Assembly: GCA_029717555.1 (NCBI GenBank)
Contig: JAMDHS010000034.1
Location: 124,001-188,000 of the forward strand
DNA length: 64,000 bases
Direction of reading: 5' to 3'
From: Peribolospora baueri
Lineage: Eukaryota
Shown: one piece after another, positions 21,901 to 44,085 of the stretch
How the letters are laid out: the number at the start of each line of letters is the position of its first letter
How positions within the stretch are numbered: the first letter of the stretch is position 1
The notes under the pieces: model-generated
The model's input: the letters and a program-made list of their open reading frames with translations, nothing else
Databases searched by the model: none
Told to the model about the DNA's origin: nothing
Translations under genes and position numbers: made by a program

Positions 21901-24900
21901 TTCAGATGCTCAAGCATCGAAGCATCCCCCCAGAGGCCACACAGCGTTCCACGCCCAATGACGTCCTCGCAAAGTTCAAGAATGTCAAATTGAACGACAC
22001 TGGCAAACCCGTCCAATGGCCTGCCGAAGACGACAGGGCGACTTTAGTTATTAACAACTATAGCTTTGGCGTGAGTTCCGGCTCCTCCTTGTTCTCATAC
22101 CTTTACAGGCTCCTTGCAGGGCGACAGGAGTTGAAGAGATCGTGTTCGACCTTTCGATGCTTTTCACGTTCGATTTTTTCAGGGAGGCAACACGTCTATG
22201 CTCTTGAAGGCTTGGTCCCAGCCCGAAATCCCTGTCGTCGAGGATCCTCGCAAGCATCATGTGGTCATCGTCTCGGCCAAGACCAAGGGCTCCCTCCAGC
22301 GGCAGAAGGAACGGTGGATCGACTTCCTGACTAGGGAGATGACTGTGCCGGACGGACCGCCTTTCTCTTTGGCCGACGTCAGCTATACCACGACAGCACG
22401 ACGCAACACCACTTACCAGCACAGGGTCTCCTTCGTCACCGACTCCCTGTCCAAATGCATAGAGAGCCTCAAGTCAGCCAACGCCGTGCTGGCCCCTTCC
22501 GCTTCGAAGAAACCCAAGGTGGCGTTCTTCTTCTCGGGCCAAGGGAGCCAATATCCTGGCATGGCCCGCCTACTCGCCAGCGACTCTAGCGCTTTCCGCC
22601 AACTTCTCGAGACGTGCGATGGCATCGTCAAGTCTTTCGGCCGGCCCGGATTCTTGGACGCCATCCTTCCTGATGACCAGGGACAGGCTGCACCTCTTAC
22701 CGACGAAACGACCCAGACGGCCATCTTTTCGATCCAATATTCCCTCGCCAAAACGCTCGAGTCCTGGGGGGTCGTGCCAACGCTTGTCGCTGGGCATAGC
22801 CTCGGTGAATACGCCGCCATGGCCGTGTCTGGGGTGCTCAGTCTTCGCGACGCCTTGTTCCTCGTCTCCACCCGTGCGCATCTGCTCGTGACGCTTTGCA
22901 AGCCCGGCACGGCAGGCATGCTCGCCGTTGCCGCTGACTCGGCTTCTTGCAAGCGCTACATTCGGGACGCCGGCGTGGCGGTCGGCAGCGCATCGGAGCC
23001 GGGTTGTGAGATTGCGTGCGAGAACGCTCCGGAAAGCACGGTTGTTTCTGGTCCCAAGGAGGCCGTCACCAAGCTTGCCGCTCATATCAAGCAAGCTGGA
23101 AGCCATCGTTGCACCCTTCTCGAGGTTGCCTTTGCATTCCATTCGGCTTCAGTACAGCCCATCGTTGAACCTCTTCGTCAGGCGGCTCAAAAGGTCCAGT
23201 TCAACGCGCCCGGGGTGCCGATCCTGTCCAATGTCACGGGCGACTTCGTGACCAAAGCTGGCACGTTCGGGAGCGACTACCTTTGTCTGCATAGCCGCAA
23301 CACCGTCCGTTTCGCTCAAGGCCTGAGTTCGGTCTTCAATATGGCAAGAGAGGTGAAGAAGAACGGGATGACTACCGAGTTGAACATTGGACTTGAAATC
23401 GGCCCTCACCCGATCGTCCTGCCCATGGTCAAGGAAAGCGTCGGCAAGGCCGATCTGGGCGCGTCGAAGGGCCTGCTAGGGACTCTGTTGCCGACGCTGC
23501 GCAAACAGACGGACGACTGGGCGACCTTGTCGGGCACGTTGAGCTCGATATACCAGGCCGGGGTGCCGGTCGACTGGTTCGAATTCCAGCGTGGCTTCGG
23601 TCGCCGCCGACTCGTCACCCTGCCCAGCTATCCGTTCGAATCCGAGCGGTATTGGATGGACTTTCGGGATCGTGGGATGATCGACGTGGGCGCTGAAGTA
23701 CTCGTCGGGCAGGCCAACGGCGTCGACGAAGACGAGGAATCGGAGGTGGACGACGAGGAGGGTGAAGAGGATGAGTTGGAGGAGGACGAGCAAGATCCCT
23801 CGGTTCTCCCCCCGGCTGAACACACCTTCCTGCGCGCTTTGGACATGGAGTACGTGAATGACGGTGCGGGCGCAACGTGTCTCTTTGAAGTGGTCCCTGG
23901 GCCCGAGCTCGAAGTTTTGGTCCGAGGCCACAGGGTGGGCAACATGGCCCTCGTACCGGCGGCCTTGAGCGGCGAGCTTCTCTTCCAAGGCGCACACTAC
24001 ACGCTCAGGCACTGCGTCGACGAAGCGGCCGTTGCGGACTCGCCGCTGGAAATCAGCAACCTGCACATCACGGGCCCGCTCGTCTGGGGGGACAAGGAGG
24101 CGGGCGACGAGGCGCCGCGGGTGTTGGTTCGCTGTGTCGCCGACATCCAAGCTCGTGTGGTGTCATGCATGCTGTCGTCCGAGTCTGGCAAGCCTAGGGC
24201 CGACGGGACTCGGCCCACTTCTCTGCACGCGACTTGCAGCGTCGCTTTTGGCGATCTTTCTGTTTGGAAGCGCCAATGGGCGGCCGTGGAACCGCTGGTG
24301 CTACCGCAAGCGGCGCGACTGGAGTCTGACGGGGAGGACGTGGAGGTCTTGCGCACCGAGCTGGCCTACGAGCTTTTCTCCAAGGTGGTGTCCTACGACA
24401 CGGCTTACTGGGCCATGGACGACGTCCGGATGACGCCGACGTTTGGCCTTTGCACTGCCAGATTGGGAGGCAAGCACGGACACAACCCAGGAGGAGCGGT
24501 GGGAGGGCGGTACGTGTTCAACCCGCTCACGATGGACGGTACGAGTCAACTGCCGGGCCTGATGGCCAACGTGCTTACGCAAGACGCTGACGACGAGCAC
24601 GTCTACATATCCGAGTCGTGCGGCAACGCTCAATTCGGTCCGCGCGTGCTCGAAGCGGAACGGCGGGGAGAGGCGCTGAAAGTGTTGTCGACGCTGCGTG
24701 AAGCTCACACGGACACGGAAAAGTTTGTGATCGGCGACTGCTATATCCTGGGTCCGGATGACGACGACGAGGGGGGCAAGGCGGGGGGCGACAAGGTTGC
24801 GGGGCAGAGGATCGTAGGCACGGTCACGGGCTGCAAGTTTAAGCTCTTCCCGACACGAGGCCTTCACGCTGTGCTGAAGCAGACGCTCACTGCCCGGCGG

Positions 24901-24909
24901 ACGGCGTAG
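18965..24909 (+). CDS. Non-reducing PKS 'A': SAT-KS0(inactive)-AT-PT, with no ACP or TE
   Basis: SAT GFCGG (19430-19444) and PYH (19958). KS fold with DTGEMSS in place of DTACSSS (Glu 21197-21199), ECHASNS and HLGNAEA. AT FSGQGSQ, GHSLG (22792-22806) and AFHS (23134-23145). PT GHRV (His 23929) and MDGTSQ (Asp 24535). Stop TAG at 24907-24909 directly after the PT. Introns at ~19682-19765, 20552-20665, ~20830-20942, ~21773-21869 and ~22071-22182. Confidence 0.92.
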
Positions 24910-25874
24910 AGGCAGGGAGAGGAGGCCGGGCGGGGCGACGTAGATGTTTCCCATTTGCCTTTTTGGTTTCACTTTTCGATATATTTTGGCTCGTGATTGA
25001 ACACACGCTTCTCTTTCTGATACGATGCCCGGCGGTCGAATAATATACGGCTATGGTTCGCCATCCTTATTTCCTCGCTCGCAAGCAAGGCACGCAACGA
25101 GGCGTGGTCCCGCGTCGCCCTGGCGTCCGTCCCATCGAATGAGCAGCAGCGCACTTGAAAACGCGCGTGCTTGCGAGAACACCGTGTCTTTGCACATGTT
25201 CCTAACCTCTCAAATGGATCATCATCATCGCAGATCTGTATCGTCCGCACGCCATCGCCATCGCCATCGCCGTCGCCGTCGTCGTCGTACTCCGCTCGCT
25301 CTGCGTCGGCCCGTGCGTCTGAGCGCGTGTCTGTGCGCATCACTCCGCAGCATCTGGCCGCAGCACCCCACGTGAGTTACTCTGGCCCGCTTCGTTCCGC
25401 TGCTGGGCGTGGTTTGGTCGTTCTTTACGCTGTGCCGTCTGGTAGTGAGTGAGCACCGCCATGGAACAGGACATGACGTGGTAAAGCTGCTCAGCGCTCA
25501 TCAAACACGCCCAGCAACGCCCGGTGGAGACGGCTGGCTGACCGCCCCTCGGTAGACGTGACCAGCGAGCGCCCCGCTGCCCAGCGGACCCTGACCCTGG
25601 CCAATCGACGACCCTTGTCTCCTGCGACTTTACATCAACCCCGTCGTCCTGCGTCCGGTCGGGGACGGAGCGACGGCGCACACGTTCGGCGGAGATGGAT
25701 CGGACTGACGTGGCCATCTCACGCAGCTCTCTACTCGGCACCCACCGGACAAAAGGGTTAAATACGCCACTTTTCGATGCCCTGTTCACCGTCTTGTCTC
25801 CCCATCCCTCATCTCTCTCACACACAAGCCTTCATCTTCATACCTCGCAGCGTCTCCACCCACTCCCAATCAAC

Positions 25875-26368
25875 ATGCCCGTCCTCAGCTACCGTGAGTC
25901 GCGGCCGCTGGCTCGACGGTGGACGGATCACTTGATCCTTGCTCGTCTTTTCCTTTTCTTACCGTCTTCATTCCTTCCTTTCCTCCTTCAGTCCTCTTCA
26001 AGTACAAGCCCGGCACCTCGGCCGAGACTATCAAAGAGTTCGCCCAGCGCAGCCAGGCCCTCCAGACCGCCGTCGCCAGTGACATCAACGTCATCTCCAT
26101 CCACGCCGGCCCTCTCCTCCCCCTCCCTGCCAACCTCGAGCGCGGCTGGCAGGCGGCCCAGGCCGCGACGTTTGCGAGCAATGACGATCTCGTCAAGTTT
26201 GCCAAGGACCCCGCGCACGAGGAGTGAGTCCGGTGTCTTTTGAATGTCAAGTGAGAATGGCTTTTTTACCTCTCCTCCACCTCGCTTTCCTCCTCCTCCG
26301 ACAACAGGCTCAAGAAGGCCCACGCCGTCCACGTCGAGGACTTTATCGCCAGCCAGATCGAGTACTAA
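25875..26368 (+). CDS. Dabb (stress-responsive alpha/beta barrel) protein, candidate polyketide cyclase, 3 exons
   Basis: Spliced product MPVLSY-LVLFKYKPGTSAETIKEF...GWQAAQAATFASNDDLVKFAKDPAHE-ELKKAHAVHVEDFIASQIEY*, with the Dabb hallmarks VLFKxK and F.S...L..(Y/F)..(H/D)PAH. Confidence 0.85.
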
Positions 26369-26487
26369 CTAGGTGGACGGGGACCGACGAGGCTGGCCGA
26401 TTCGTAATATCGGATACCCGCACATCTTCATTCATGTTTCCACCTAGCTCCCGTTTCCAAACGTCATCCTTTTCATCAAAGTCACGT

Positions 26488-26725
26488 GTTGGCATGCCTC
26501 TTCTCCAATCGGATCCCATTCGACCGCTCGAGCTGCTTGCTTGCGCGGGAGAGGAGGGTCTGAAATGATTAGATGTATAAGACGTGCTGTGCAATCCCCA
26601 TTCAATCATTCCCCCGTCTACTCGCCGTGTTGGCATGCCTCCTTTTCCAATGCGGCTCCCATCGACCGCTCGAGTTTGTCCGCTCGAGCTTGCTTCGAGA
26701 GGAGGGTCCGAAATGACTAGATGTA
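26488..26725. repeat. Imperfect direct duplication of ~95 bp downstream of the Dabb gene
   Basis: GTTGGCATGCCTC...CCAAT.CGG.TCCCAT.CGACCGCTCGAG...GAGGAGGGTC.GAAATGA.TAGATGTAT occurs at ~26488 and ~26628. Confidence 0.75.
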
Positions 26726-27303
26726 TTACGACGTACGACATGCCGTGCAATACCTGGGTATTCAACCGTTCCCCCATCTCCTGCCACGCATCGCATCTCT
26801 CTCGGCGAGGTGATGATGATGGATGGATGGGCCAGTCGGAGTCGACTCGAGTCGAGTCCGGCACGCGTGGGCGGTTCTGCCTATATTCCTCTCGAGACAC
26901 GAAGAGCCAGCAGAGCCGCGGACTGCGTTGCGTAGCATGTGTCCTCTCTCCTCTCCTCTCCTCTCCTCTCCGGCCGTTTGTGTTGCCCCATTCAACCGAA
27001 GTCTTTCGATCGCTCGCTCGGACGTGAACGAACGAACGAACGAACGAACGGGATGCTCGCCGATGACCCGCTCTACTCGCTCAATTTCCAATCATCATCC
27101 AGGCGAATGCGAAGATTCCACATCGGCCGAGACGCACATTGCGTTGCGCTGCGGAGGGAGTGATAGGATAAGAGCCAACGGTGGTGGTGATTTATGAAGA
27201 CGGAGTGGCCGTCTATGGAAAGAAAGAAAGCGAATGAACAGCGGGGCTACGGGCGTATAAAAAAGACACGTACTAAAAACAGATAATAAAGACAAATCCC
27301 CCG

Positions 27304-29156
27304 TCACGCCTCGTCGTCCAACACCGCCAACCCCTCCACCACATTCTCCCTCGCCCACTCGTCCATTCCTGGCACCTTGTATCCGTACCACGAGTCATAC
27401 GTGCCCGCGTTCCTTCCCCACAGGGCAAACTTCATAATCCACTTGATCAAAAAGAACGCCACGGGCCCCTTGTCTTTCTTCGACGCTCCGCGCTTGTTCG
27501 CCTCCGTTAGGATCATCTCCGCCCGCGGCGAGCGCGCTTCTGTGAACGCCTTTAGCGCCGGTTCCAGGTCGGCCACGGTGGGGATTGACGAGACCTTTTC
27601 CACCGTTGGAGTCATTGTTTGGACGAGCGGGCGCAAAAGGTAGGCCAAGTAGGCTGCGTCTTCGAGCGCCATCGAAGCGCCCTGTCCGGCATGTGGAGGC
27701 GTAGCTGAAGGACGTCGTAATGCGGCGGAAAGCAAGGAGCGTCAAGGAGTGAGGTCCGGGACGCAAGAAGACGGCGAGACATACCATGCGCGGCGTCGCC
27801 GATGAGAACCATACGCTTCGAGTGCCACTTGTCCAAGTTCTGCACCTGATACACCGGTAAGAGCTGAGATATACCGTTGGCGTCCGCCGCCTGGATGACC
27901 TCGGCGATGGGCGTCGGCCTGATGAAAACAAAAGCGAAAAAGAAAAGCAAATGAGAGGGCAGATCACCAATGAAGACCACAGGGATGCCAGCGGCGGCGA
28001 ATTTCTGCAGATGATGAGCAGTCAAAGCCCCCCTAGACGTCCATTCGCAAAGACAAACGGCTTACCAGCTTCCGCAGCGCTCCTTGACCTCGGCCATGGC
28101 CTGCTCGTGCGACATTCGGCGCCACTCGTCCTTTTCTCTTTCAGAGCTCGAATAGTTCGCCGCCCTATCGACACGTTAGAAGAGTAGAGGACGGGACGCG
28201 GCGATGCGAACGAGGTAAGGAAAGCTTTCGGCGCCAATTGTTCCTTTTCCCCATCTCTGCACTCACCACGCAAACCGTTTTCCAGCTGATCCGATGCGGG
28301 CGAGGCCAAAAAAGCCAGAACGGCCGTGGGTGATGCGGAAAGGGCAATGATCGTTGACGTAATCCTTGATGCATGGCACTTGAGCAACGTCCATGATGCC
28401 GATCACGCTGACCAAACCTTCGAAGACGGGATGGGGTGGAGCTACCCCTGCGGCTTCGGCGATGCTGGTGGGCGGGGAAGGGTATGGGTTAGGAAGGAAC
28501 TGAAACTGAGAAAGTGGCGTGCCCGCACTCACCTCTTCCGGACGACGCTCCAGATGCCGTCCGCACCGACGACGAAATCGGCCCGGTCCTCTTCCAGCTG
28601 TCCGTTCGTGCGCCAGGTGATCGTGACCCCCTCGTCGTCCTCGACGAGGTCTTCGACTTTGACTGACCAATGCACAGCAATCTTCCGACGTTCCACCTCA
28701 TCCAGGAGCAGGTCGAAGAGGGCCCGTCGCGTGACCATGCCCGTGGGCTGGCCGTGGCGCTCCTTATTACCGAGCCGAGCCTGACCGATGTAAAAATCGG
28801 TGTAATCGAGCATGTCCAACGTGCGGATTTCCGAGATTTCGTTGTCCTTGGCGAACAGCTTTTGGGCGAGCCCCAACGAGTGGATCACCTCGACTCCGTT
28901 GGGCGCAAGAAGGAACGGACCGCCTTTGGGAATCTCTTCGCGTGAGCCGCGCGACTCGAGCACGCTCACAGAGCAGCCGAGACGGGTAAGGAAAACGGCG
29001 GCGGCGCACTGTCAGAGGGCAAAGAGAGCAAGGTGTAAGGAAGTGAGCAACGGTGGTCCTGTCTTCGCGTCCCTTCAAGCGCCGTCCTACTGCCACCTTC
29101 AGTCCACTCACCCCGCCGATGCCAGCGCCGACGACGACGACTTTCATGGGAGCCAT
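27304..29156 (-). CDS. FAD-dependent monooxygenase (group A, FAD_binding_3), multi-exon
   Basis: VVVVGAGIGG Rossmann motif, VVGADGIWS (DG motif), LIGDAAH...PHAGQGASMALEDA (GD motif). Confidence 0.92.
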
Positions 29157-30147
29157 TCCTTTCGAGGCTAGGTTACGAATGCCGGGGATGAATTGGTAGG
29201 CAATACGGGAGAAGGAAGTGAGTAGGGTGGGAGGTCAGTTGGGTACGTCTGAATCGACGGGGCCGTCAGTGATCCTGTGGTTTTGTATGTGCTAGGAGCC
29301 GATGAGGAGCGAGCGAGGGCGCGGGCCCTGAGCAAGGAATGGCGCAGGCGAGCGACGCGGTAAGGGCGCCGCCGCGGTACGGAGTTGGAGTTGTGCCATG
29401 GTAAGCGAATGCGTGTGCAACGGCGGCGAGCGAGGCGATGTGAGTCTGGAAGACGAGACGAGAGGACTGGTCTGCGACAATCGACGAGAGGAACTGAGTG
29501 AAGTGACCTTGGTGGTTGCTGCGGCAAGGAACGGCGCGCTGGTTTCCCGTGAGGATCAATCAAGTCCCGTCGAGTCGGAGTAAAAGTAAAGCAACTCTGC
29601 GACCGGCTCGGCCGTGTCAGCGCGGAGGCGAGCCGAGTCCGGTCCTCCTTCCCCCTCCATCCCTCGCCTCCCTCCCCGTCTTCGTCATCCCCCGTCGATG
29701 CCAGCGCAGTCGTCTTTCCGCATTCCAGAGAACCCGACGCTAGACGACTCTACGACTGCGTCGAGCAGGGCACACGTATCACACTTTCACGTGCCCCCGT
29801 TAGCAAGAGACGGACACAGTAGAGATGCGAGCCGAATAAGACACAGAAGGGGGATGGATAGGTGGCGTAGGGCCCTTCTTCGATTGCAGCAGAAAATTAG
29901 ACCGCCGTCTGGGCCAGCCCAGATCCCGTACACAGAGAATCGGCAAAGGCACGCGGGGAAGTGGGGCGAAGCAATAAGAATGAAAGGACGGTCGCGATGA
30001 GAATGAAAGGAAGGTCGTGAGAAAAAAACGAATGGAGTGTCCGATGGCCCCGAAGCATCTATCGGTCTCGATTCCCCTTTGCGCGTCTAGAGGGGATCCA
30101 CGAGCAAGCCAAGCGAGGATTAAAAGTCGAGTCCCAAACCTGGACGC

Positions 30148-32714
30148 TCAGCCCCGGAAGGGGAACCGCTTGCGGAGGCTCTCGCCGTAGAGAACGACGT
30201 AGATGCTGAACGGCAGGCCGGCAAGAGCCGCAAAGCCGAGGACGGTGTTGCCCCAGCCAAAGCCGAGGGTGATGTACAGCCGCTCGCCGAAGAGCGGGAA
30301 CGCGGCGCCGACGGCGGATCGGCAAAGAACCGAGACGGCGACGGCCGATGCCGAGAAGGGGATGAGAGCATCTACGAGGTAAATCTGGGCGCACTGGAAG
30401 ACCAAGACGACGCCGACGCCCATGACGAACGAGCCCATCAAGGGGACGAACCAGAAGGTCTTGGCCTGGGCCGCCCAGCCGAACCAGAACAGTCCGACAG
30501 CCATGAGGACCATGCCGACGTTGATCAGAGGCAGACGGTACTCGGGCTTGCCCCTGAACGGCTTCTTCTTGGCTGCCACCACGTGTGGCGGCACACCTGC
30601 CTCGAGCTCGGCGATCCGCATCCTGTTGAGATCCCTGGCAGTGAGGTGGGCGTACAGCTTGTTCTGCGCGATCCCGTTGGCGATCGCTGCGATGAAGCAG
30701 CCCAGGCCCATGCCGAGGAACGTAAGTCCGCTGATACCGGGCGACCAGCCGTAGTTGGGCAGACTCGGGTGTGCCGCCGAGGCCTGGAACAGGAGCGGGA
30801 ACGTGGTGAACGCCAGATAGACGAGACCATAGATGTAGGCTTGGTAGAGAGCTGTGCGAACGGAGGACATGTGGACAACAAAGAGATATGTATGAGCGAG
30901 CGTGCTGCGAAGAGCGCTGTGAGCGAGATGCTAAATCGTCGGAAGCGTGATCGAAGCCACTTACAGAAGATGCAAACGATAGGGCTGGTGAAGAAGAGTT
31001 TGACGGGACGCCTGATGGCGAGCTTGACCTTGGGCGCAAGCTCCTTGAGCTTCTGCGTCGTGCGCCACCCGTCGACCGTCTCTCCGCGGAGCGTTCGCTC
31101 GGCCGCCTGAAGGCGGTCGAACTTGGCTTGCTTGAGGAAGGGTGCGTAGGACTCGCTAAGGGTGAAGACCATGATGGCGCCGATCACCCCCGATCCAATG
31201 GTCAGAACCCAGAGAGTCCAACGCCAGCCCGTGCGTTCCACGATCCAAGCACCGATCACGTTACCGAGAATGGGGCCGAGGAGAGGGCCCAACGAGTACA
31301 TGGAAGCGGCCTTGCCGCGCTCCTTGGGCTCGAACAGGTCACCGATAGTGGACGAACCGAGCGAGGGCCCAGTAGAGCCGCTGATGCCGGCAAAAAAACG
31401 AAGGATGCACATGTTCGTCGTGTTGCCGGCCAGGGCGCTGGCGACGTTGAAAGCGAGGTATACGACGGCGCTGATCACGTACACCTTGTAGCGGCCGATG
31501 ACCTCGCTGAGGGGGGCAAGGATGAAGGGGCCGAGGCCGAGGCCGAAGACGTAGAGCGAGACGGGCAGCATCTGGACAGTGGTGTTGGAGATGTTGAAGT
31601 CGTGCGCCATCTCGTAGGTAGCAGGGACGATGATGGACGAGCCGAGGGGGGCAAGGAAACCGATGCAGGAGATGACGAAGACATTGAGCCACTTCCGGTC
31701 GTTCGGCCACATAAGCGGATTCTCGTTCTTCTCCAGCTCGACCTTGTCCAGGAACTCCGGCGCAAAGGGGATCGGCGTCTTCTCGTCGTTGATGGCACAG
31801 CTTTCCGTCTCCTTGTGCACGTTGTACGACACCGGCCCATGCTTGCGGTGGTCGTATACCCCAGCATCCTTCTGGAACGGCAATTGGCTCAGCTGTGGGC
31901 CATATTTGACGGCATGCTCGTACGCGGTTGACGCCGTGCGAAGAGACGACATGCTCTGCTTGTGCTGGGGCTCGTATTTGTGCGGGTGCTCGGACGAGAC
32001 GGGCGTGGTGCTGCCCGACGGGACCGAGCTGGCGCAACCGGACTGGTTGTAGCGGGCCGTCGACGCCGAATCGGACCAAGGGCCGACGCTGGAGCGCGGT
32101 GACGATTCAGAAGGGCGAAGGACTTCGGCGGGCTCAACATCAATGAACAGCGGCTTGACGGAGCTGCGGGATGGACGAACGGGGGGCTCGTTGGAGTACG
32201 ACCCGCGGTCCACGGTCGACACGCCGCGGGAGATGGAGCCGGAGCGGGAACCGGAGCGGGAGCGGGAGGGGTTGCGGGGGGGGCGAACGGGCTCACTAGA
32301 GTACGATACAGTCTCCGCGTCAGAAACGCGGCGAGAGGGGCGACCGCGTTCGTTAAAGTACGACACCGGATCCGCGGTGATAAGAGCGCGGGACGGGCGA
32401 CTGGGCTCGCGTTCACTGGCGTACGACACGGGCTCCGCGGCGAAAAAAGCGCGGGGAGGGTAGCCCGGGTCGCTGGAGTACGAGCGGTGCTCCGCGTTGG
32501 AAATGCCGTGAGAGCGGCGGCTGGTGTCGTCGGTGTACGACAAGGGCTCCGCGGTGAAAGGACCGTGGTAACGACCGGTATCGTTGGAGTACGAGACGGG
32601 CTCCGCGGTGTAGAGAATGCGGGAGGGGCGGTAAGATGCGGGTTCTGCTCTAAAAGGACCGCGGGTGCGACCGGGGTCATTGGCCGTCGCCCTATGCTGC
32701 GGGTTGTAAGACAT
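30148..32714 (-). CDS. MFS transporter, DHA1 drug:H+ antiporter family, with a long repetitive N-terminal extension
   Basis: ENPLMWPNDRKW, GPFILAPLSEVIGR, LRFFAG, IGDLFEPKERG, GPLLGPILG, PEYRL and multiple hydrophobic segments; one intron near 30870-30960. Confidence 0.93.
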
Positions 32715-34309
32715 ATTGGTGAGGAGGTTGATGATTCTAAAACAAGAAAAGTAGAAAAACCATGAAGGAGCCGAATATAAGGAAAATGAGCTTTGCCCGA
32801 GAAATCAGGACACTTTCTATGCGAGACGCCAGGCACACTCACATGTGACGTGAAGTAGGTTGGATTGGGTGGGACTAGAGAGAGATGTCGGACCCTGAAA
32901 GGCGACAAGAACCAGCGTCCAGCTTTGAACGGGAGAAGAAAGCAAAGGACCAAGGGTGACTATATTGCGAGATGAGCGAAGTGGGCAGGTGACTGGGGTC
33001 GTCGGTCTCGGCTCGGCTTGTCTTTCTCGACCAGGGAGAGGAGGCAGGAAGGAGGGAGGGCAAGGGTAAGAGGAGACGGGGGGTAGGGAAGACGCATCTC
33101 GGAAACGGGGATGCTCCGAAGGCACTGGTATTTGAATCATTCGACGACTCTGCCTCGACTCTGCCTCGACTCGGACTCGACTCGGACTCGACCCAAGGCC
33201 CGACGTGGTCGAGGTGAGGGTGTAAGTTTAGACGAACGCGACGCGGACCGTGCACGGACTCTTACTGCGTACCGCCGACTCGGTCCGCCATAGCCCCGCA
33301 TTTGTCCGTCCCTGGCCGAGCTTCTCCGCCTCCAGCCGCCATCACTGCCGTCGGTGACGCCGCGTTCCTCTTACTCCGTCTCGCATGCCACCATTCTCCA
33401 GCCGGCGAGTCCATGCGTACATGGCGCACGCAAATAGAAAGGCAGCACTGTCCACGGCCATCCTGACCCTGAGCTCGTACAGTTGGGAGCAGATGATCAG
33501 CATTTTCGACGCCAATCCGCGCGATCGCGGATCGCAGAGTGATCCGTTATCTCCTTGTTTGTTCGCAGCCTCTTCCGACCCCGAGTGTTCCTTGCGATAG
33601 ATAGATGATGGTCATACCCGTCATCCATCACCATTTGCAGCAAAACCGCAGCGGGGCAGAACTGTTTACTCTCGATCTGCGCCGCCGGGGCAGCGCTTCC
33701 GACTGACACAACGCCCGAGCAGGATAGCTCACTCCGACCACGGGAGCGGATGAGAGAGCGCAGCATCGAAGCACCGAAGGAACCGAGCAAGATATCACCT
33801 TCTCGCCTCGCCGCGCCTTGTCGTACCCAATTGGGACTCTGTGTAACAGTGAGGCGTGCGTTCTATGGGCGCTCGATTTGTAACCCGGCGCTCACGCGGC
33901 CTCCCAGGTCGAACTCCCAGGCCAGCCCAAGGCCTCGCGAGGTCAGTCCTCAAGCATATAAGGGACGAGGGCCTGGGCCAATTTTCGGGGACCCTCGTTC
34001 TTCGCATTCACTTCCATACTCAACCCAGTTTACCGCCTGAGCCACGCAACGTCCATCCAGCCTTCCGACATCGTCTCCGTCCTCTTTTCGTCGCCCATTC
34101 TTGTTCTTCCTCAGGTGAGAACTCATGCACATCGTTGTTGTGATGGGCGGACGAAGGGCATGTCGATCGCTTTAACATGCTTTCTTATCCCGCTTTTCCA
34201 CCTATTAACCTCCGGTCCCGTCTCGTATCGCACGTCTCTCCCCTCTCTCTTGTCGCTCTGCGGCCCATCCGTCCCGCAACATCACACGGAACCACACCAG
34301 AAACGCAAT

Positions 34310-34735
34310 ATGGCCACCATCGGTAGCAAGCCCGCCGCGCGCAGCCCAGAGCAGCTCGAGGCAAACAAGGACCTAATCCGACGATTCTACCACAAATTCG
34401 GCGTGTTGCACGACTTCACCGGTGCAGACGAGTTTCTGTCAGCCGATTACAAGTCGTTCCGCGGGAACGGCATGATCAACGATAGGGACAAGTGGCTCAT
34501 GGTCCTTCAGAAGGGCATCGCTACCAAGATGCCCAACTTCAAAGCCGAGCTCCTCCGCGAGGTCGCTGAGGGAGATTACGTTTGGGTGCTCGGGCGGATC
34601 ACCGGTTCGAGCGAGTGTCCTGAGGGAAACATCACGCTGAGCGTCGATATCTATCGCTTTGGGGAGGATGGTAAGATCGTCGAGCACTGGGACGTCCAAC
34701 AGTGGGTCGATCCCAGCGTGGAGCACGCCAAGTGA
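34310..34735 (+). CDS. SnoaL-like / NTF2-like protein (candidate polyketide cyclase)
   Basis: 141 aa: NKDLIRRFY...VAEGDYVWV...VDIYRFGEDGKIVEHWDV, the typical SnoaL C-terminal signature. Confidence 0.88.
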   Translation: MATIGSKPAARSPEQLEANKDLIRRFYHKFGVLHDFTGADEFLSADYKSFRGNGMINDRDKWLMVLQKGIATKMPNFKAELLREVAEGDYVWVLGRITGSSECPEGNITLSVDIYRFGEDGKIVEHWDVQQWVDPSVEHAK

Positions 34736-35581
34736 GGAAAAACGGGATGGGTGGAGCGGTATCGGTCCCGGTCCTCTGGTTACAGGTTTTCCATTCCGAA
34801 GAAGGGCATGAAGAGGGGCGACTCGGTCGCGACAAGAAACGAAGGTGGCTACCATACCACTACGGATCCGGAGACATGGCGATCGCTAGTGCTCTTGTGC
34901 AGAACCAGTATGCTCGATGTCTGGGACGGGAATGCGGTGCCATTGATAGACGGCCTCTGCCTCCTGTCTACTGTGCGCAAGACTGAATCTATGACCTCCA
35001 GATCGTTCCTTCGTATTGTACCTTCATGTCATGATGAATGGCTTCCGGTTGCCATGTTATCAGCGACTGGGCGAGCGAAACTGTCGGACAAACGACGAGT
35101 AAGCATGTGCTCAGCCGGGTCCGCAGCCGATGCGATTCCTCTTGGACGCATCGCCCGTCAGCATCCGTTCCTCCGCCCCGCGCCCTGCCGTCGTGCGTCC
35201 AATTCAATTCGCCCGGCTGCTTCCGCGCCGCCGCGACACAGCTGGAAACTCAAAACTCGTTTCGTTTCGCGTCGCGTCGTGTCCCAGCGTTTCTGTGTGC
35301 TTTGCGAGAGCAATAGGACGCATTTCGACAGGAGCCATGTCAATGGATGCAATGCAACTGTGCTAGAGAGCGAGAGTGTACATGGATGGGGGTGCGCATC
35401 ATGCGTCCGCCAGGGTCTCGAGAATGGCAGCCCATCTTCATGCGTATATCTAGATCAGCGATCGACCGACGAGCAGGCGGATGGGGACGAAGGAATGATT
35501 ACATCCAAGTAAATGTGAAAGAGCGACCTGCTCGTCCGGAGCAAGAGGGACCCATCGTGAAGGACGACGTGAGAGGAACAA

Positions 35582-36222
35582 CTAGCGAGCCATTTGGACC
35601 GCGAGGTCGTACACGCCAACGAAGAAGCAGATGGCGCTAAGGTAGATGCGGGCGCGGTGCCTCGAGTCCCAGAGACGGATGAGGTTGGTTACGTTGACCT
35701 CGTCTATGTACCTCTCGTTCTCCTTTTTGAGCTCATTCTTGAGCCGGAACACGCTCGGAAATATGAAGGCGACCGTCAGAGGGATCATGGCGACCATGGC
35801 CCCGCCGGCGACCCAGAGTGCCAACCGGCTGTTCCACCCGCCTGCGGAGACGCGCGGATCAATCCATCCGGCGTAGAAGTATCCCAGCGCGCCCACCCAG
35901 CCGATTGGCATCCACCGCTTCACCGAGAGGTCGAAGTTGTCGTTCCACAGCTGTACGCGCTGCCGCGGGGTGAGGCCCTTGCAGCGGAGGATCATAGGGA
36001 CGATCACGGTCGACGTAGAGATCGTCAATCCTACGGCAAACAGAGTAAAGACAGTGCGACGTCAATAACGTCAGCATACGTAAGAAGAACAAGATATTGT
36101 AGAGACACGGTGAGCGAGAGAGACAGGGGGAGCGACTCACCGAACCAGGCCCCGCTGCCTGCAATTCCGATGGCGCGAGCCAGCTCGGGCCGGGACAGGC
36201 CGACGCAATCCGTGATGGACAT
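35582..36222 (-). CDS. DUF1772 / anthrone-oxygenase-like membrane protein, 2 exons
   Basis: Exon 1 MSITDCVGLSRPELARAIGIAGSGAWF; exon 2 GLTISTSTVIVPMIL...QLW...MIPLTVAFIFPSVFRL...LIRLWDSRHRARIYL. The hydrophobic helices and the terminal W...H..R motif fit DUF1772. Confidence 0.72.
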
Positions 36223-37129
36223 GGTGAGCAAGAAGATAAAAAGAAGGGGAGGCAGGGCGCTGTCGAGTTGGATAGGTGAGGGTTGTTCGCAGCTAGTTGC
36301 GCGTCAGAATTACGATGGTGATGACCTAGAAGTGGGTGATATGTGAGCCACATCGAGCGCCGCCAACTTATACCTTGCCTCGTACCGTCCGTCCTCACAA
36401 GATAGCTTCCTTCTTACTACGCCCACACGCTCATCTATCTCACTCCACTCTATCTCACTCCACTCGGACCTCTGACGCCGGCAGCCATCGCTATCCAGCG
36501 TGGCCGGTCGCCCGACTCTCTCGCCGGACCTGGGCGTCCAGGACGGCCTCGCATCGAGTGCGCAGGCCCAGTCGAGCGGACCGAGTCCAGCGTTGTACGA
36601 ACGCATGTTTACCGTGGCCCTCCCTCCGCTCCTTCCATCTGCCCGGCGCCGAGGAGGCCCGCGTGAACCCCGAGTGAAGTGCCGACGGCGCACGGGCCGC
36701 TTGTGCGGCAGGCAAGAATCATGTTATGTCACGTGCCTCCCCCCGGCGCACTCATGGCGCGTGGGTACGCCATCATAGCCGGGAGACAATACTCGGAGAC
36801 GATGGGCACGCAGCTCTTCTTACTCCGTGGAACCCGGCACTCATCTCGCAAACAGCCCTCGCTCCAATCCCTCCGCTCTATGGCGCATTCTATACTGCAC
36901 AGTGCATACCGTTCGCCATGGTGTATCAACTATGGCTCGATAAAAACCGGACGGCCGTCGGGGCTTCATTGACGGGCCCCTTACCTTTCCGTCTCCTTCC
37001 TATCTCCTTGATCCTGCCCTCTTTATATCTGCCTCCTCTCAACTTGGCTGGATACAGCTTATAGACTCTTCACTACCTTACCCCCGTCAATCCAGTGAAT
37101 CGCTCGCTGGACGAGTTTTCGAGCCCCCA

Positions 37130-40100
37130 ATGACCGGCCACGATGACGAAGCGTGCCATGCAGCACTTCCGGCCTTGCGCGACTTCTTCATCTTCTCTTC
37201 AGATTTCAACTCGGTCGATGGTTTTGCCATGCTTCAAGAGCGGTGCTGCGATCCCACCTCCGCGCCCGGCAGCGGCGACGCCCTCGCGCTGCTCTTCTCC
37301 CGTACTTGGTCCGCCCTGCAGGAAGAGTGTCGGCGCTCCTCCGCCAACCTCTCCGGCCTCGGACTGGAGCCTCTCCCGGTCGAGCTCGCTGAGCTCTTCC
37401 AGCTCATCTTGTCCAAGGGTACGTTCCGAGCACAAGAGCTGGCTAAACTAGTATTTGGTCTGGCCTTGCAGACCATCGTCCAAGTCGGCCGGTATGTCTT
37501 GCATTTGCTCGGCGCCCGCGCCGCCCTCCGACCTCGTCAGCCGGGCCCCGCCCACCAGATGCCCACCATCCCGAACCCGTACTTTGCAGGCGTCGGGTTG
37601 GGATTCTTGGCCAGCGTCGTTGCCGCCTCCAGTACCGCCGACCTCGGCCACGACTTTGTAGGCGAAATCGTGGACAACGCCGTCCATGCTGTCCGCTTGG
37701 CTTTCCGCGTCGGTCGAGCGAGTGCGGCACGCGAATCTCGAGAGGGATCCGACTCCGTCGGAAGGGCCTTCGCTTTCCTGAGTATGGAAAGTGCTGACGC
37801 TGCACAGGTGAAGGCGCTTTGTGACGAATTTACCAAGTCTGATGTGAGTCCTAAGGTCCTACGTCGAGGCAGGCAAGATTCCGTCCGCGATCTTGGCGCT
37901 TGTCCCTCTCCTAATCATACCTCTGTTTATCTCGGCGATCAGGCAACCTCTCGGTTGGCCATTTTGGTCAGCCAGAGCTCCCTTAAAGTTCTCGTCGTTC
38001 ATGGGACTCATTTGGACTTGCAGCGGCTCCAAGCAGAGCTACAATCTCGTGGATGCAGGGCGCAGATGGATGCCTACCCTATGCCGTTCTACTCCTCGCC
38101 CATCAGCCAGGAATACGTTTTCTCTGCGATGCTTGATGAGGAGCGGAACGCCTCCCCCGCCTCTGCGAATGTTCGATTCCAGCTCAAGTACCCAGTCGCA
38201 TCGCTCGTTTCGGGTCGCCGCCTCGCACCCGGCACCGCCTTGGACGCATCTGCTGTCCTTGCCTTCGGGCTCGGTTCAGAATTGTCTGCTTTGACGTGGG
38301 ACGAAGGACTCCTTGAGCTTGCCAAGCTCGAGGAGAACCCGCTTAGGAGCCTCATGATCGGTCACGGCGCCAACAACAAGGGCAAGTACGACGCGCTCTT
38401 GGAGCACGTCTTGGATACCGTCAAGAGCGTGCATCCCCACGCCGAGCATTTCCCTGCGCCGGCGATTTTGTCTCTAAACAACCCCGTCGCTGAGGGCCTT
38501 TGCAGTCCCGACTTTGCCTCCATCCTTCGCCCAACCCCGGCCGAAAGTGTGGCCATTGTAGGCATGTCCTGCCGGCTGCCGGAGGCCAACAGCCCAAATG
38601 AGTTCTGGGACATGCTTATGAAGGGAGTCGATGCCTGCAGAGAGGTGAGGGTTGTTTCCGGAAATTGGAGCTGCCAGACGTGAGGAGCTTGCCGTTGTTA
38701 ATGTTTCCATTTCTGAATCAGGTCCCCGGCCATCTGTACGATATCAATATGTATTACGACCCTCAAGGCGCCGCTCGCAATCGCATGGGAGCCAGGCACG
38801 GCAACTGGTTTGACGGCATCGTTCCCCTCTTCGATCCGGAATTCTTTGGCATCAGCGACGAACAGGCGCTCCACATGGACCCGCAGCAGCGCATGGCCAT
38901 GTTGGTCGCATTCGAGGCTTTAGAACAAGCTGGTTTCGCACCTGAGATCGCTGACAGCGCCTGGGACCGCGAGTCGACGGGTGTCTTTGTCGCCGCCACC
39001 TGCGACGATTACCGTGAAAACCTGATGTCGAACATTACCCAGCACTACCTAGAGGGCAACTACCGCCAGTTCCTTGCTCAGCGGCTCTCTCGTCACTTTG
39101 GTTTCTCGGGGCCCGCGCACACGCTCGATACCGCCTGCAACGCGTCCTTTGTCGCTCTCGATGCGGCCTGCACCCAACTCGTCCGTCGCAAGTGCTCGGC
39201 AGCTCTCGTGGGTGGCGTCAGCGTCCTGACCCAACCTCAGGTGTCTGTCGGTCTCGACAAGGCGTACTTTCTGAGCCGTACCGGCCAGTGCAAAACGTTC
39301 GATGAAGGAGCGGACGGGTATTCCAGGAGCGATGCGGTGTCATTCATCGTTATCAAAAGGCTCGAAGACGCCATTGCCCACAATGACAACATATTGGGCA
39401 CCATCATCGGCATTGGAACGAACCACAGGCGAGTTCATGACGGAGCCTTCGACATTCAGCATAAGACACGTGAGCATTGATCGCTGACCGCCTCGTCTTT
39501 CACCACTCGACTCGTGCTCTGGTATCATACAGCGGCGAATCTCACTCGATCACCCATCCGCACGCCCCGGCCCAGCAGGCCCTGATGACATCGGTCCTGC
39601 GGTCGGCCAATGTCCAACCCTGGCAGGTTGGCGTGGTCGAGGCTCACGGCACCGGCACCCAAGCAGGTGACTGGAACGAGCTTACTGCCATCAGAGGCAC
39701 CTTCGTGGAACCTGGCCGTGACCAGGACAACATGATTGCGGTCACGTCGTCCAAGGCGAACATCGGACACAGCGAAGGCGTAAGCATATCATCCACCATG
39801 ACTCTTGCATTTCCTATGAGCGAGCCCCAGGATCCAAACTGATGTCCCATGCTCTTGCTTCCATCAGGCTTCGGGACTGGGTGCGCTAATCAAGTTGTTG
39901 CTCATGGTCAAGCACAACACGGTACCTCCTCACATCGGCATCCGCACCAGGCTCAACCCCCGTCTCGAGCACCTTCTCAAGGACAGGATCGTGGTCGCCA
40001 CGAATGGGCCCATTGAACTGCCCCGCCCCAAGGGGCAGGAAGAGTGTTATACCTGCGTCAACAACTTTGGCGCGGCTGGAGGTAACACTAGCTTAATCCT

Positions 40101-43100
40101 CCGCGAACATATTGCTGAGCCCAGGACGACAAGCAGCTCCACCGTCACACGTCATCTCGTCATCGTCAGCGGTCAGACCACCACTGCCCTCGAACGCAAC
40201 GTCCGCAACATGATCGACTACGTAAAGGCCGAGGGAGACAGGCTTTCTTTGCCCGATCTGAGCTACACCACCATGGCGCGACGGGCGCATTTTAAATACC
40301 GCAAGGCTTGCCTTGTTTCTTCGGCCGCAGAGCTGTGCGAGGCCCTGGAGACCACCGCAGTCGTGGAGCGTACAAAGAACAACTCGCAGTCGCAGGTCGG
40401 CCTTGTTTTCCCGTCCTTTACCGCCTCTGCTGCTACGGTGTTGGATGCCGGCAGGGCACTGTTCCGTGCTTTTCCCACGTTCCGCCACTACGTGCAGGTT
40501 TGCGATAGCGTTCTCCAGGGTCTCTGGCAGCCGGGCGTTCTGGACGCGTTCGGCGAGGGAAAGGCTAGCACGGAGGAGGTGATCGTCGGTTTCGTCATTC
40601 AGTATGCCCTCTTCGCGACACTCGAGGACTGGGGCGTTCCTATCCACACGGTCACCGGGGCGGGCCATGGCCAACTGTTGGCCATCGTGGCGTCCAAGGC
40701 GTCTACTGTCGAGGACGCCCTCGCGATTTTGATTGCGGCTCGCGACGTCGACTCGACAGCTTTGGAGCAAGCGGTGTCTCGCATCAACACATCCGTATCC
40801 AAGCGCGAGCTGATCTCTTCTAGCTGGTGCTCTGTTGACGGGACGCTTTCGGCTGCCGCCATCGCAGAGACTTTCAACAAGGACGGCCAGGGAACCGTCC
40901 CGGACATCAAATTGCCCGCCGGCATAACGTGGTGGTCGATGGGCGGCCAAGGCCTGGCTCACGTCATCCCTGGTACGACGTCTCTGCTAAATGCAGGGGA
41001 CACAACGGTTTCTGTTTTGGAAGCTTTGCGAATGGCGTTGCTGGCGACTTTGCCTGTGCGCTGGAACGCGGTGCAGGCAGAGCTGAACCCTGGAGCAAGG
41101 TTGTCCCCGTTGGCCTCCTATGCATGGGACTACGGCAGCTTCTTCGTCCCATACGCGGATAGGGCGCTTGTTCTGCCTTCGTGGTCCGACAACCCCAAGA
41201 GAGCTCAAGTCGGCAAGCCGAGTCGTGTGAAACCTCGCCGTGCTCCGAAAGCGAGAAAGCTGCAGTCTCGCAAGACGGGCATCCGCAAGGCTGCCCGGGT
41301 TAGTCCCGTTCTGGGCTTGGTTTCTACTCGGGGCAGCTCTCTGGTCTTCGATCTCGACCTGAAGACGGAAGTTGTCGAGCAAAACTTCACGGCGTCATTC
41401 CGGGAAAAGCGATACCTCATGGCAGCAGAACTCTTCACTGCCATGGCCGTCGAAGCGCTACAGTTCCGTCACGCTTCCGATGAGCACAGACCCGGCGTCG
41501 ACGTGCACGGTCTGGAGGTTCTTCAACCCGTAGCGCTTGACAAAGCCAGCGGCTTCTTGCGGCTTGAACTAGCCCCGCTCCGCGATGGCTGGCACGAGTG
41601 CACTTTTTCAGAGGTCAGCGGGGAGGAAGCGTTTGTTTGTGGCCACTGCTCTGTCCGGACGGCGTCTTCTTCTGACTTCAAGGAGAGCTGGGAGCCTCTG
41701 GTCGCCCTGGTTAAGGGACAGTTGGTGAACCTCCGAAATGGAGCAGGCAACGGTAGCAAAATGGGGGCCACCCTTTTGTACCGTTTCTTGTCCAAAGTTG
41801 TGACGTACCCGGCATCTGTGAGTGCGCGCCCGTTCTTCGCGGCCTCTTGATCTCGACTTTCTGCTCACCATCTTCTTCTCATGCCCGAACAGGCTCGAAT
41901 GCTCAAGTCGATGAGCTTCTCGGTCAACCGGAAGTCAGCATTGGCTTCTCTACAAGCTTCTGCGCAAGATCACAGCTGGCAGCGCAAGCAAGGAACGGCG
42001 GTCGTGCCCGCTTCGGCCATCCTGGGCGTTGGGCAAGCCCTGACTGTGCTCGCCAATCCCACGGCCTCTTCGAGAGACGACGCGCTTTACCAGCTAACGT
42101 CCATGTCTATGCAGGTATCCGAAGCTCTCAGCGTAGCTATGAGCAAGGACAGGAAGGTCGAGATTGTCGCAGCCATGTCCGAGCATCGCTCCGAGGGCGG
42201 CGTTGAGACTGTGTCTAGCGCCTACTTTGTGGACGCCCAGGATGGGACCATCTATGGCGCTCTGCGAGACGTTCTCTTCAAGCCGATCCAGAATCAAGCA
42301 GGGCCGTCTCGCACCACAAAGGCTTTGCTGCCACGCGTTACTCCTGCGGCCAAGGTCAGCTCCCCCCAGACACCCCTCGCCGCCGACAAGGTGTCCTCTG
42401 GTCTGGTTCTCACGCAGACGCAGTCTTCAACCAAAACCGCCTCGCCACCTCCGGTCTTGGATGCGGAGCCAGTAAAGGCCTCGCCGTCCGTTGACAAGCT
42501 TCTGGCGACTATGCAAGACATCATCGCCACGGAGACGGGTGTTGGCATCGAGGAGCTCTCATCTGGAAGCTTTGCCGACTTCGGAGTTGACTCTCTCATG
42601 TCTCTTGCCATCCTGGGACGCATGCGAGAGATTGCGCCGTTTGAGCTGCCCGGGTCACTGTTCATTGACTGCGAGACGTGGCAGGATCTTGAAGACTACC
42701 TCAAGGAACAACTGCCTTCGAGCAGCGTGGAAGCCACTACCGTCTCCAGCTCGCCGTCGGCTTCGCCCGCCTCGTCCTCGGCCGAAACCCTCTCTACTGC
42801 CGCCACTAGTGCAGGGAACGACGTAGTTCCTTCACAATCCTCCAGCCCGTCGGCTGCAAGCGTTTCCGAATGCATGGGTACGATCGCGGAGGTGATCTCT
42901 TCGGAGACTGGCGTCGACCAAGCAGACCTCGCTGGCTCAGCTTTCGCGGATGTGGGCATCGACTCTCTCATGTCTTTGGCATTGCTCGGTCGTTTGCGCG
43001 AGCTTCTTCCATTCGAGCTACCAGGCTCTCTGTTCATCGACTGTGAGACGATGGACGACCTCGAGGAGTTTGTGGTCAAGCAAGTCGCCGACCAACCTCC

Positions 43101-44085
43101 AAGCGCCGCAATCACAACTCCCGAAGCTGAGAGCAAACCTGCCCCTTCTGCGTCGGCCACGCATCCTTCCTCCATCGAAGTCGAGCGTGTGCTCGAATCC
43201 CCAGGTCGCGCTCTCTTGCTTGGAGGTTCGAAGGACTCGACCCATACCCAGCCTCTCTTCCTCCTTCCGGACGGTTCCGGCACCTCGGCCGTCTATCAGC
43301 ATCTGCCAAAGATGGATCGTATCGTATACGGACTCAACAGTCCCTTCCTTCTCAAAAATGTTGGACCGTGGACGAAGGGTGTGCCGGAGATAGCGGCCCA
43401 TTACATTGCTCAGATCCGAGCCAGACAACCGCACGGACCGTACTTGCTTGGAGGTGAGCTCGCATTGGAGCCTTGCAAAAAGCCCGGGTCATCGGTCATC
43501 GCGCCACGTCGTGTGCCCTTGGCTGACCCATCTGTCATCTTATGTCTTCACTTAGGTTGGAGCTTCGGCGGTGTCGTCAGCTACGAGATCGTCCGCCAGC
43601 TGGCCTGCGACTCCGAAGTAGTCAAGGGCCTCATTTTGCTCGACGCTCCCTGCCCCAGGAACCTGCCGCCCCTGCCGCACACGATCATCGATTGGGCCAC
43701 CGAGTCGGGCGCGCTGAATGGGCTCGGGATCAAGAAGTTCAGCCCGGAAATGATTTCCCACTTCCGTGCAGCCATCCAGACCTTGTCCGACTACGATCCA
43801 CCGAGTCTGTCGCCGGACATGGCGGCAAAGACGAAGGTCGTCCTCATTACGGCCGTGGAGGGCGTGGGGGCGGACCCGAACGAGGTGGTCAACACCAACG
43901 AGACAGTCTCCTGGCTCATGCACAGCCGGGCTGGTCTCGGCGCGAACGGCTGGGAGCGTCTGCTGGGCAGAGGCAACGTCCGGGTCGAAGAGATTGGCGG
44001 TAACCACTTTACGATGATGAACCAACCTTACATCGGCGAGTGGTCGAGCGCTATCAGGCGCATCATGGATGACTGGTGCATCTAG
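37130..44085 (+). CDS. Non-reducing PKS 'B': SAT0-KS-AT0-PT0-ACP-ACP-TE
   Basis: KS triad intact: DTACNAS (Cys 39136), EAHGTGTQAGD (His 39645), KANIGHSEG (His 39768). ACPs GVDSLMS (Ser 42592) and GIDSLMS (Ser 42964). TE PLFLLPDGSG, G|WSFGG (Ser 43561) and GNHFTMM. SAT motif is GVGLG (37589-37603), AT motif is GAGHG (40657-40671), and the PT region lacks the His and Asp motifs. Multi-exon. Confidence 0.92.

Follow-up and report, generated by a model that had tools for sequence, protein, structure and literature searches.

Introduction

Fungal iterative polyketide synthases (PKSs) are treated as homodimers of a single chain, and in genome mining a gene without one of the domains tends to be dismissed as broken. 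Split pairs are known genetically from Ustilago maydis, in which Pks3 (UMAG_04105), devoid of an acyltransferase (AT), and Pks4 (UMAG_04097), devoid of an acyl carrier protein (ACP), are reported to be both needed, and jointly sufficient, for the formation of orsellinic acid; the authors of the report describe a split system with the AT supplied in trans, and liken it to the two-subunit fungal fatty acid synthase (FAS) (bioRxiv 10.1101/2019.12.28.889758). The phylogenomic study of Koczyk et al. (2015) set UM04105 aside for its lack of an AT, and a 2026 survey suggests that pks1 and pks2 act as one functional system. We analyse here a stretch of 64,000 nucleotides from Peribolospora baueri (contig JAMDHS010000034.1, positions 124,001 to 188,000, forward strand), called the window below and numbered from its first letter. 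It carries two genes of the non-reducing type (NR-PKS), PKS-A and PKS-B, whose domain losses are complementary and whose linkers after the AT region bear strong and opposite charges.

Compared by published description, Pks3/Pks4 and PKS-A/PKS-B are alike in being two NR-PKS-like genes of one cluster, separated by a few genes, one without an AT and the other without an ACP. They differ in that the accessible report of the U. maydis pair mentions neither a dead ketosynthase (KS) nor charged linkers. Moreover, the dedicated FAS and the anthrone oxygenase of the window cluster suggest a product different from orsellinic acid.

Other systems offer partial parallels. In the bacterial type II systems, the chain-length factor (CLF) has Gln in place of the KS Cys. 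The window pair resembles KS-CLF in that the gene for a dead KS paralog, lacking the active-site Cys, neighbours that for a live KS, its presumed partner. It is unlike KS-CLF in that these KSs are domains of megasynthases of about 1700 to 2300 residues, that the impairment is a replacement by Glu or Asp or the loss of the second His, and that the heterodimer is a predicted one. Modular PKSs use docking domains, which are short, partly charge-coded, terminal and folded, and which join successive modules. The tracts described below are likewise proposed to be short charge-coded elements for correct pairing; unlike docking domains, they are internal, they occupy equivalent positions in two paralogous subunits, and the acidic one is predicted to be unstructured. 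Finally, norsolorinic acid synthase PksA (8cg4) differs in having all domains on one chain, and the complete NR-PKSs that we sampled have near-neutral linkers.

It is very likely that PKS-A and PKS-B act together as one enzyme. That they are two subunits of one NR-PKS belonging to an old two-gene system, with charged linkers that would attract mixed subunits, is a narrower proposal, for which we judge the balance to be about even.

Results

Two tracts of opposite charge at the same position

In PKS-A, the post-AT motif LPSYPFESERYWMDFRDR (23620-23673, + strand; conserved in 6/6 rows of the A-family alignment) is followed, 17 residues further on, by the acidic tract DEDEESEVDDEEGEEDELEEDEQD (23725-23796, +), which lies in the open frame 22135-24909 and has 19 Asp or Glu among its 24 residues. 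The corresponding motif of PKS-B, LASYAWDYGSFFVPYADR...SWSDNP (41110-41196, +, the motif proper being 41110-41163; conserved in 6/6 rows of the B-family alignment), is followed after 11 residues by the basic tract KRAQVGKPSRVKPRRAPKARKLQSRKTGIRKAAR (41197-41298, +; open frame 39820-41850), in which 15 of the 34 residues are Lys or Arg and none is acidic. Net charge was scored, in the same way for all proteins, over a stretch of 60 residues that begins 11 positions beyond the first residue of the motif, and amounts to -21 for PKS-A and +14 for PKS-B. Upon re-translation, the sequences, coordinates and residue counts that the original prediction had given for the tracts were recovered letter for letter, and both tracts do come after the post-AT motifs, as it had claimed. 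Its statement that they come before the product template (PT) domain holds for PKS-A, where a PT with its catalytic His follows; it needs amending for PKS-B, which has only a PT relic in which the His is lost.

Such composition is not reached by chance. When each open reading frame was shuffled 5000 times, the best window had at most 13 acidic residues (19 in the real sequence) or at most 13 basic ones (15 in the real sequence), and 0 of the 5000 shuffles reached the real value. Among the 25 Pfam-supported pieces of open frame in the window, the runner-up windows had 9 acidic and 12 basic residues. Tandem Repeats Finder detected no DNA tandem repeat over either tract; codons are mixed in both, and no simple repeat makes up the basic tract. 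Positions 23742-23790 of the acidic tract are matched, with 8 mismatches, by another contig of 15 kb in the same genome assembly (run X1), and therefore at least one further GAN-rich, acidic-coding stretch exists elsewhere in the genome. A reading of the basic tract as a nuclear localisation-like signal was set aside as implausible for a PKS.

Each activity is alive in one gene only

PKS-A (18965-24909, +) is interrupted by several short introns and encodes a starter-unit transacylase (SAT), an impaired KS, an AT, the linker and a PT, with Pfam matches to SAT, KS and Acyl_transf_1; tblastn with the Tilletia horrida ortholog P0004 spans 18956-24888. The SAT is intact (motif GFCGG). By motif reading, the KS active-site stretch is VDTGEMSSL (21185-21211, +), in which the catalytic Cys is replaced by Glu, and Asn stands in place of the second catalytic His in HLGNAE (21752-21769, +). 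The fold itself still scores well (Pfam KS, E 1.4e-41), so that PKS-A combines a retained KS fold with a broken triad, as a CLF-type subunit does. The AT active site, GHSLGE (22792-22809, +), is intact (Acyl_transf_1, E 4.3e-46). The PT core (23926-24552, +) runs from the catalytic His (GHRVGN, 23926-23943) to the Asp motif (MDGTSQL), and both columns are invariant in the A-family alignment. PKS-A stops directly after the PT, as do 5/5 orthologs; no PP-binding or Thioesterase match was obtained in it with Pfam, and the downstream gene encodes a Dabb protein. Third codon positions take 28 of the 39 substitutions listed in 22558-23643 (a hand count on the relative found in run X3, of about 97% identity), and to judge from this pattern PKS-A is under purifying selection.

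PKS-B (36944-44085, +), whose start is not fixed and which has several introns, reads by Pfam and motifs as a SAT relic, a live KS, an AT relic, the linker, a PT relic, two ACPs and a thioesterase (TE); tblastn with T. horrida P0124 spans 38543-44055. The in-frame stop codon at 41848-41850 falls within an intron. The SAT-like region is weak (E 1.4e-8) and has lost its Cys (GVGLG). In the KS, the active-site Cys is present (LDTACNASF, 39124-39150, +), and so are both catalytic His (39639-39659 and 39756-39776, +; motifs HGTGT and NIGH). The AT relic reads GAGHGQL in place of GHSLGE (40657-40677, +), with loss of the catalytic Ser, and PKS-B gave no Acyl_transf_1 match at E <=0.01. Two ACP serine motifs, GVDSLMSL and GIDSLMSL, lie in two PP-binding stretches (Pfam) between 42583 and 42978 (+), and the TE (Pfam) comes after them. 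The open frame holds some 530 residues upstream of the KS (36944-38548, +), and the annotated orthologs of T. horrida and Violaceomyces palustris, as well as P0128, begin at the KS; the copy present here may be less eroded, or the gene models of the orthologs may be cut short.

Taken together, PKS-A keeps the SAT, AT and PT, and PKS-B keeps the KS triad, the ACPs and the TE, so that each activity is alive in exactly one of the two. The full Cys-His-His triad of the KS is found in PKS-B and not in PKS-A, the malonyl acyltransferase GHSxG in PKS-A and not in PKS-B, and the set made of a PT with its His, an ACP and a release domain is complete only when both are combined. A distance of 12 kb separates the two genes, which lie on one strand and in one cluster, A lacking an ACP and B an AT. 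It is because these losses are complementary that we consider an A-plus-B enzyme very likely.

The stretch of about 400 residues after the linker of PKS-B, the PT relic (41299-42450, +), was recognised by homology to the PT of Botryobasidium botryosum P0330, with which the region aligns by tblastn (E 4e-25 over 41008-42726) and by BLASTP (E 3e-13); it has lost the catalytic His (TASFREKRY, 41389-41415). In the same alignment, the basic tract faces the K-rich linker of P0330. With Pfam (E up to 1), no PT was found in four B-family proteins or in two pieces of the window, and hhalign detected no similarity between the PT of PKS-A and the B-family alignment (probability 0.13). A language-model search for look-alikes of the V. 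palustris PKS-B ortholog points to PKS dehydratase domains (score 0.94), which we take as a lead only.

Structure prediction with AlphaFold2 gave different results for the two proteins. In the AT-to-PT part of PKS-A, the AT and the PT were predicted confidently, the latter at residues 566-906 of the model, and residues 491-556 had a pLDDT below 50 and no secondary structure; the acidic tract corresponds to residues 531-554. The best solved relative of this part is norsolorinic acid synthase 8cg4 (E 2.8e-75). The PKS-B model (676 residues, from a 6-row alignment) had a mean pLDDT of 45.9, with all residues from 436 on below 50, and gives no information on either the tract or the PT relic.

Relatives form two subunit lineages

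The AT-PT part of PKS-A retrieved T. horrida P0004 (43% identity) and V. palustris P0005 (41%), both with SAT, KS and AT and without carrier or TE. With the linker plus PT as query, only 4 proteins of the whole library were found at E <=1e-30 (P0004, P0273, P0274, P0275). PKS-B queries retrieved T. horrida P0124 and V. palustris P0127, plus P0128, P0244 and P0251. A and B partners share a contig in T. horrida (OC835_002942 and OC835_002947) and in V. palustris (PWN49474 and PWN49478, on one contig of 26 kb), and P0275 and P0251, both listed with a longest contig of 50202 bases, probably also form an A/B pair on one contig. All members of the A family end just after the PT, and in all of them the KS shows the losses seen in PKS-A, with Glu or Asp in place of the Cys. 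All members of the B family have the KS triad, lack an AT and share the motif SY.WD..YVPY.DRALV.PSWSDNP.

A second type of pair, with consecutive accessions on one contig, was found in T. horrida (P0277/P0276) and B. botryosum (P0278/P0330). P0276 and P0277 presumably correspond to U. maydis pks2 and pks1, a guess made from the names given in the source only. These pks1/pks2-type pairs of Ustilaginomycotina, together with B. botryosum KDQ18307/KDQ18306, belong to the two KS lineages of the window pair and obey its charge rule, the linker being acidic in the KS-impaired member and basic in the KS-intact one. They differ from it in domain ownership, since their KS-impaired member also lacks the AT and keeps ACP-ACP-TE, and their KS-intact member keeps the AT.

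Strongly acidic linkers outside the A family were present in P0277 (T. horrida), P0282 (Thecaphora frezii), P0278 (B. botryosum), P0321 (V. palustris), P0385 (Geranomyces michiganensis), P0279 and P0286. All seven have lost the GHSxG Ser of the AT and keep ACP motifs and a TE. The six that were aligned over the KS (all except P0286) lack the second catalytic His, and two of them lack the Cys as well. Outside the B family, strongly basic linkers were found in P0330 (B. botryosum) and P0063 (Pseudozyma flocculosa), T. horrida P0276 being mildly basic (+3 to +5). In each of these three proteins, KS triad and AT are both intact.

A maximum likelihood tree was built from 31 KS regions chosen by hand (7 from KS-impaired subunits, 6 from KS-intact partners and 18 from complete NR-PKSs), leaving out P0130, P0131, P0273-P0275, P0279 and the intron-split KSs of the window itself. 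The KS-impaired rows formed a single clade (ultrafast bootstrap/SH-aLRT 100/99), and so did the KS-intact partners (96/98). P0385, from the chytrid G. michiganensis, extends the KS-impaired, AT-less NR-PKSs with acidic linkers beyond Dikarya, and it groups with the basidiomycete KS-impaired clade. A metagenome scan with the KS-impaired alignment returned 121 pattern matches and 1 confirmed locus, whose 1419 bases stop short of the linker. A regular-expression screen of the fetched proteins for further KS-impaired members revealed none that was new, most flags being false matches.

The sign of the charge follows the state of the KS

Among the 12 KS-impaired subunits, linker net charges were -21, -7, -1, 0, -3, +3, -14, -15, -15, -12, -11 and -11, that is, -7 or below in 8 of 12. 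The 9 KS-intact partners had +14, +7, -2, +1, +1, -5, +3, +12 and +10, with 4 of 9 at +7 or above. The two groups differ (Mann-Whitney p 0.0009, uncorrected for ancestry). Linkers of 46 complete NR-PKSs ranged from -6 to +3, and 0/46 were strongly charged. In a looser scan of 200 proteins, the absolute net charge was at least 6 in 20 rows. A single one of them (P0330) belonged to the 153 rows having both AT and ACP motifs, the others lacking one of the two.

Within pairs, the charges were -21/+14 in the window and -7/+7, -14/+3, -15/+10, -1/-2 (V. palustris) and +3/-5 in the other same-contig pairs (KS-impaired member first). The original prediction had called for a check of charge polarity in orthologous pairs: 4/6 are strongly opposite and 5/6 opposite in sign, and the V. 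palustris pair is neutral, a largely favourable outcome. The charges of partners are anticorrelated (Spearman -0.94, n=6), with 6 of 720 permutations giving a value as low. The sign tracks the state of the KS and not the ownership of the AT or the ACP: the acidic subunit holds the AT in window-type pairs, and the basic subunit holds it in the second type. Linker sequences cannot be aligned between species, and their charge is nonetheless kept. These comparative data support a functional, pair-linked role for the charge of the linkers.

The tracts are most probably exonic

The original prediction allowed that either tract might prove intronic, and an open frame alone is insufficient as proof of an exon, because one true intron of PKS-B keeps the reading frame and has no stop codon. 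It lies in the TE (43454-43555, +; GTGAGC...CTGAC...TTAG, 102 nt), and the orthologs read GGWSFGG there without 34 extra residues; a plain reading across it adds these 34 false residues to the TE. This precedent is what speaks for the tracts being in-frame introns, or artefacts of the gene models, absent from the mature proteins. All in-frame GT..AG intervals of 36-400 nt overlapping a tract by at least 30 nt were therefore listed, giving 101 candidates per tract. None of the 101, for either tract, had a CTRAY branch site 8-45 nt before the AG. GTRNGY donors were found in 10 candidates for PKS-A and 7 for PKS-B, every one starting at 23686 or 41056, and those starting at 41056 would remove the conserved post-AT motif of PKS-B. 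A like scan recovered the true introns that frame breaks or orthologs make necessary (20552-20665, 39470-39532, 39780-39867 and 43454-43555). Annotated orthologs have charged tracts at the same location. By sequence, then, no intron signals cover either tract, and we hold an intronic or artefactual origin of one or both to be very improbable.

The surrounding gene cluster

A fused fungal type I FAS occupies 1-11359 (-) and runs off the start of the window; it comprises FAS_N, SAT-like AT, helical, meander, MaoC dehydratase, Acyl_transf_1, alpha-subunit ACP and FAS_I_H regions. The adjacency of a FAS to an NR-PKS with a live SAT suggests, by analogy, a fatty-acyl starter unit for the PKS product; the norsolorinic acid pathway is hexanoyl-primed. 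A FAS, an NR-PKS and an anthrone oxygenase occur together in the cluster, as they do in the aflatoxin pathway. Between and beside the PKS genes lie a SnoaL-like cyclase (33962-34732, +), the anthrone oxygenase (35582-36061, -) and two FAD monooxygenases (27304-29011, -, and 45635-47347, -), a set of predicted enzymes that fits an anthrone or anthraquinone-type product. A gene for a Myb-type DNA-binding protein (48328-49709, +) is found beside the cluster and is a candidate pathway regulator. Further on, P450, flavodoxin and FAD/NAD-binding pieces occur in two sets (51265-54323, -, and 56731-59667, -), which look like tandem genes for self-sufficient P450-reductase fusions.

Immediately upstream of PKS-A, a retrotransposon gag fragment was detected (17434-18012, +; Pfam Retrotrans_gag, E 1.6e-7). 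Just downstream of the same gene, the summed contig depth over 25156-25819 is about 500, against flanks of about 115 and 77 (some 4-fold, in two runs), and positions 25250-25288 show many loose ends and a strand-switch joint. The element at 25156-25819 is a multi-copy or simple-repeat element.

Discussion

How the pair may have arisen and may work

The locus would be explained most economically if an ancestral homodimeric NR-PKS gene had been duplicated, if the two gene copies had come to form a mixed dimer, and if each domain had then decayed in one copy. The KS-impaired lineage would be comparable to a CLF, and the other lineage keeps the live KS. The tracts, which would be flexible, are inserts at one shared site, where the chain exits from the KS-AT body toward the PT. 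In solved KS-AT didomains and in FAS, the linker that follows the AT doubles back over the KS and emerges close to the dimer axis, so that both linkers of a dimer would be near each other. Opposite charges would then attract unlike subunits, the function that we consider most likely, speeding and biasing mixed assembly, most simply that of a heterodimer between the dead KS (KS*) and the live one, and like charges would disfavour the pairing of same subunits. What the sequences show are the tracts, their position and non-random composition, the complementarity of the domain losses, the existence of two lineages and the association of charge sign with lineage; the mutual contact of the tracts, the stoichiometry of the complex and the effect on product formation are what we infer.

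The original prediction had proposed just such an electrostatic docking pair favouring the A:B combination over homodimers, a reading that is partly supported. In its favour, polarity is largely conserved, the sign tracks the KS lineage and the 46 complete NR-PKSs lack such tracts; one neutral pair does not conform. The broader view, an undescribed old class of obligate heterodimeric iterative fungal PKSs made of dead-KS and live-KS subunits with decayed domains, in which the disordered post-AT linkers, acidic on the dead-KS and basic on the live-KS subunit, would act as an electrostatic zipper enforcing the mixed dimer, is in our opinion somewhat less probable than the role proposed for the window pair, and falls a little short of an even chance.

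Several points weigh against these proposals. The V. palustris pair is neutral (-1/-2) and four unpaired members of the A and B families lie between -3 and +1; because this pair and several unpaired members are near neutral, a strong charge would be dispensable. There are only 6 pairs, and the adjacency of three of them is deduced from consecutive accessions or from contigs of equal length. The rank tests ignore shared ancestry and overstate independence, because each sign may have arisen once. Linkers of the orthologs were taken from predicted gene models, and the AlphaFold2 model of PKS-B is too poor throughout to inform on the basic tract. Finally, the KS-impaired clade could partly reflect long-branch attraction, as faster evolution of dead KSs may inflate the grouping.

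Other explanations of the charges

The main rival explanation concerns the carrier protein. ACP surfaces are acidic, and the basic linker could draw the ACP to the live KS while the acidic linker repels it at the dead one. The fact that the sign follows the state of the KS in every strongly charged case, whichever subunit has the AT or the ACP, fits such a steering. Complete NR-PKSs would benefit from it equally, yet 0/46 have a linker at +5 or above; steering alone does not require that charges co-vary within pairs, and the ACP must still reach the SAT, AT and PT of the acidic PKS-A. We think ACP steering unlikely, although it is the strongest competitor of a docking role. Alternatively, it may be that the tracts attract each other between separate homodimers (A2 and B2), or in a looser, charge-driven co-assembly, with no 1:1 KS*/KS heterodimer. 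Disordered tracts of opposite charge are able to keep partners associated even when no fixed interface exists, and the KS domains of type I PKSs are homodimeric in structures, among them those of norsolorinic acid synthase (8cg4) and CTB1 (6fij), the nearest relatives of solved structure that were retrieved. That every activity has just one live copy per pair fits a mixed dimer, and so does the long retention of a folded dead KS (Pfam E 1.4e-41, in a clade of its own), as expected for a structural partner. An assembly of homodimers seems to us rather less probable than steering.

It could also be that the tracts are functionless, neutral low-complexity inserts in a fast-evolving linker. Linker length and sequence do vary widely, several family members show no charge bias, and the same genome has a similar GAN-rich stretch on another contig. 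Against this stand the consistency of the sign throughout both deep lineages, the lack of such tracts in 46 complete NR-PKSs and the co-variation of charges within pairs; the DNA, moreover, holds no tandem repeat, its codons are mixed, and the basic tract has no simple repeat structure. Of the three explanations weighed here, this one appears the least probable to us, a little below that of separate homodimers.

Significance

The remark in the original prediction that no fungal PKS example of charge-paired linkers is described agrees with our searches: in the open-access literature, no description of a charged-linker rule, of a dead-KS subunit lineage or of a heterodimeric fungal NR-PKS was found, and a term search of PMC10401856 gave no charged-linker or heterodimeric fungal NR-PKS. 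Within that literature, the charged-linker rule thus appears to be new, split PKS pairs as such being already known from U. maydis.

If the pairing proposed here is true, 'incomplete' PKS genes of basidiomycetes would become interpretable, and could be expressed, as pairs. A short, transplantable pair of charged linkers might also be used to force chosen megasynthase subunits together. Lastly, PKS-A and PKS-B, with their relatives, would provide a natural example of a gene duplication after which the partners of a dimer lost complementary domains, and in which the charge rule marks the identity of each subunit.

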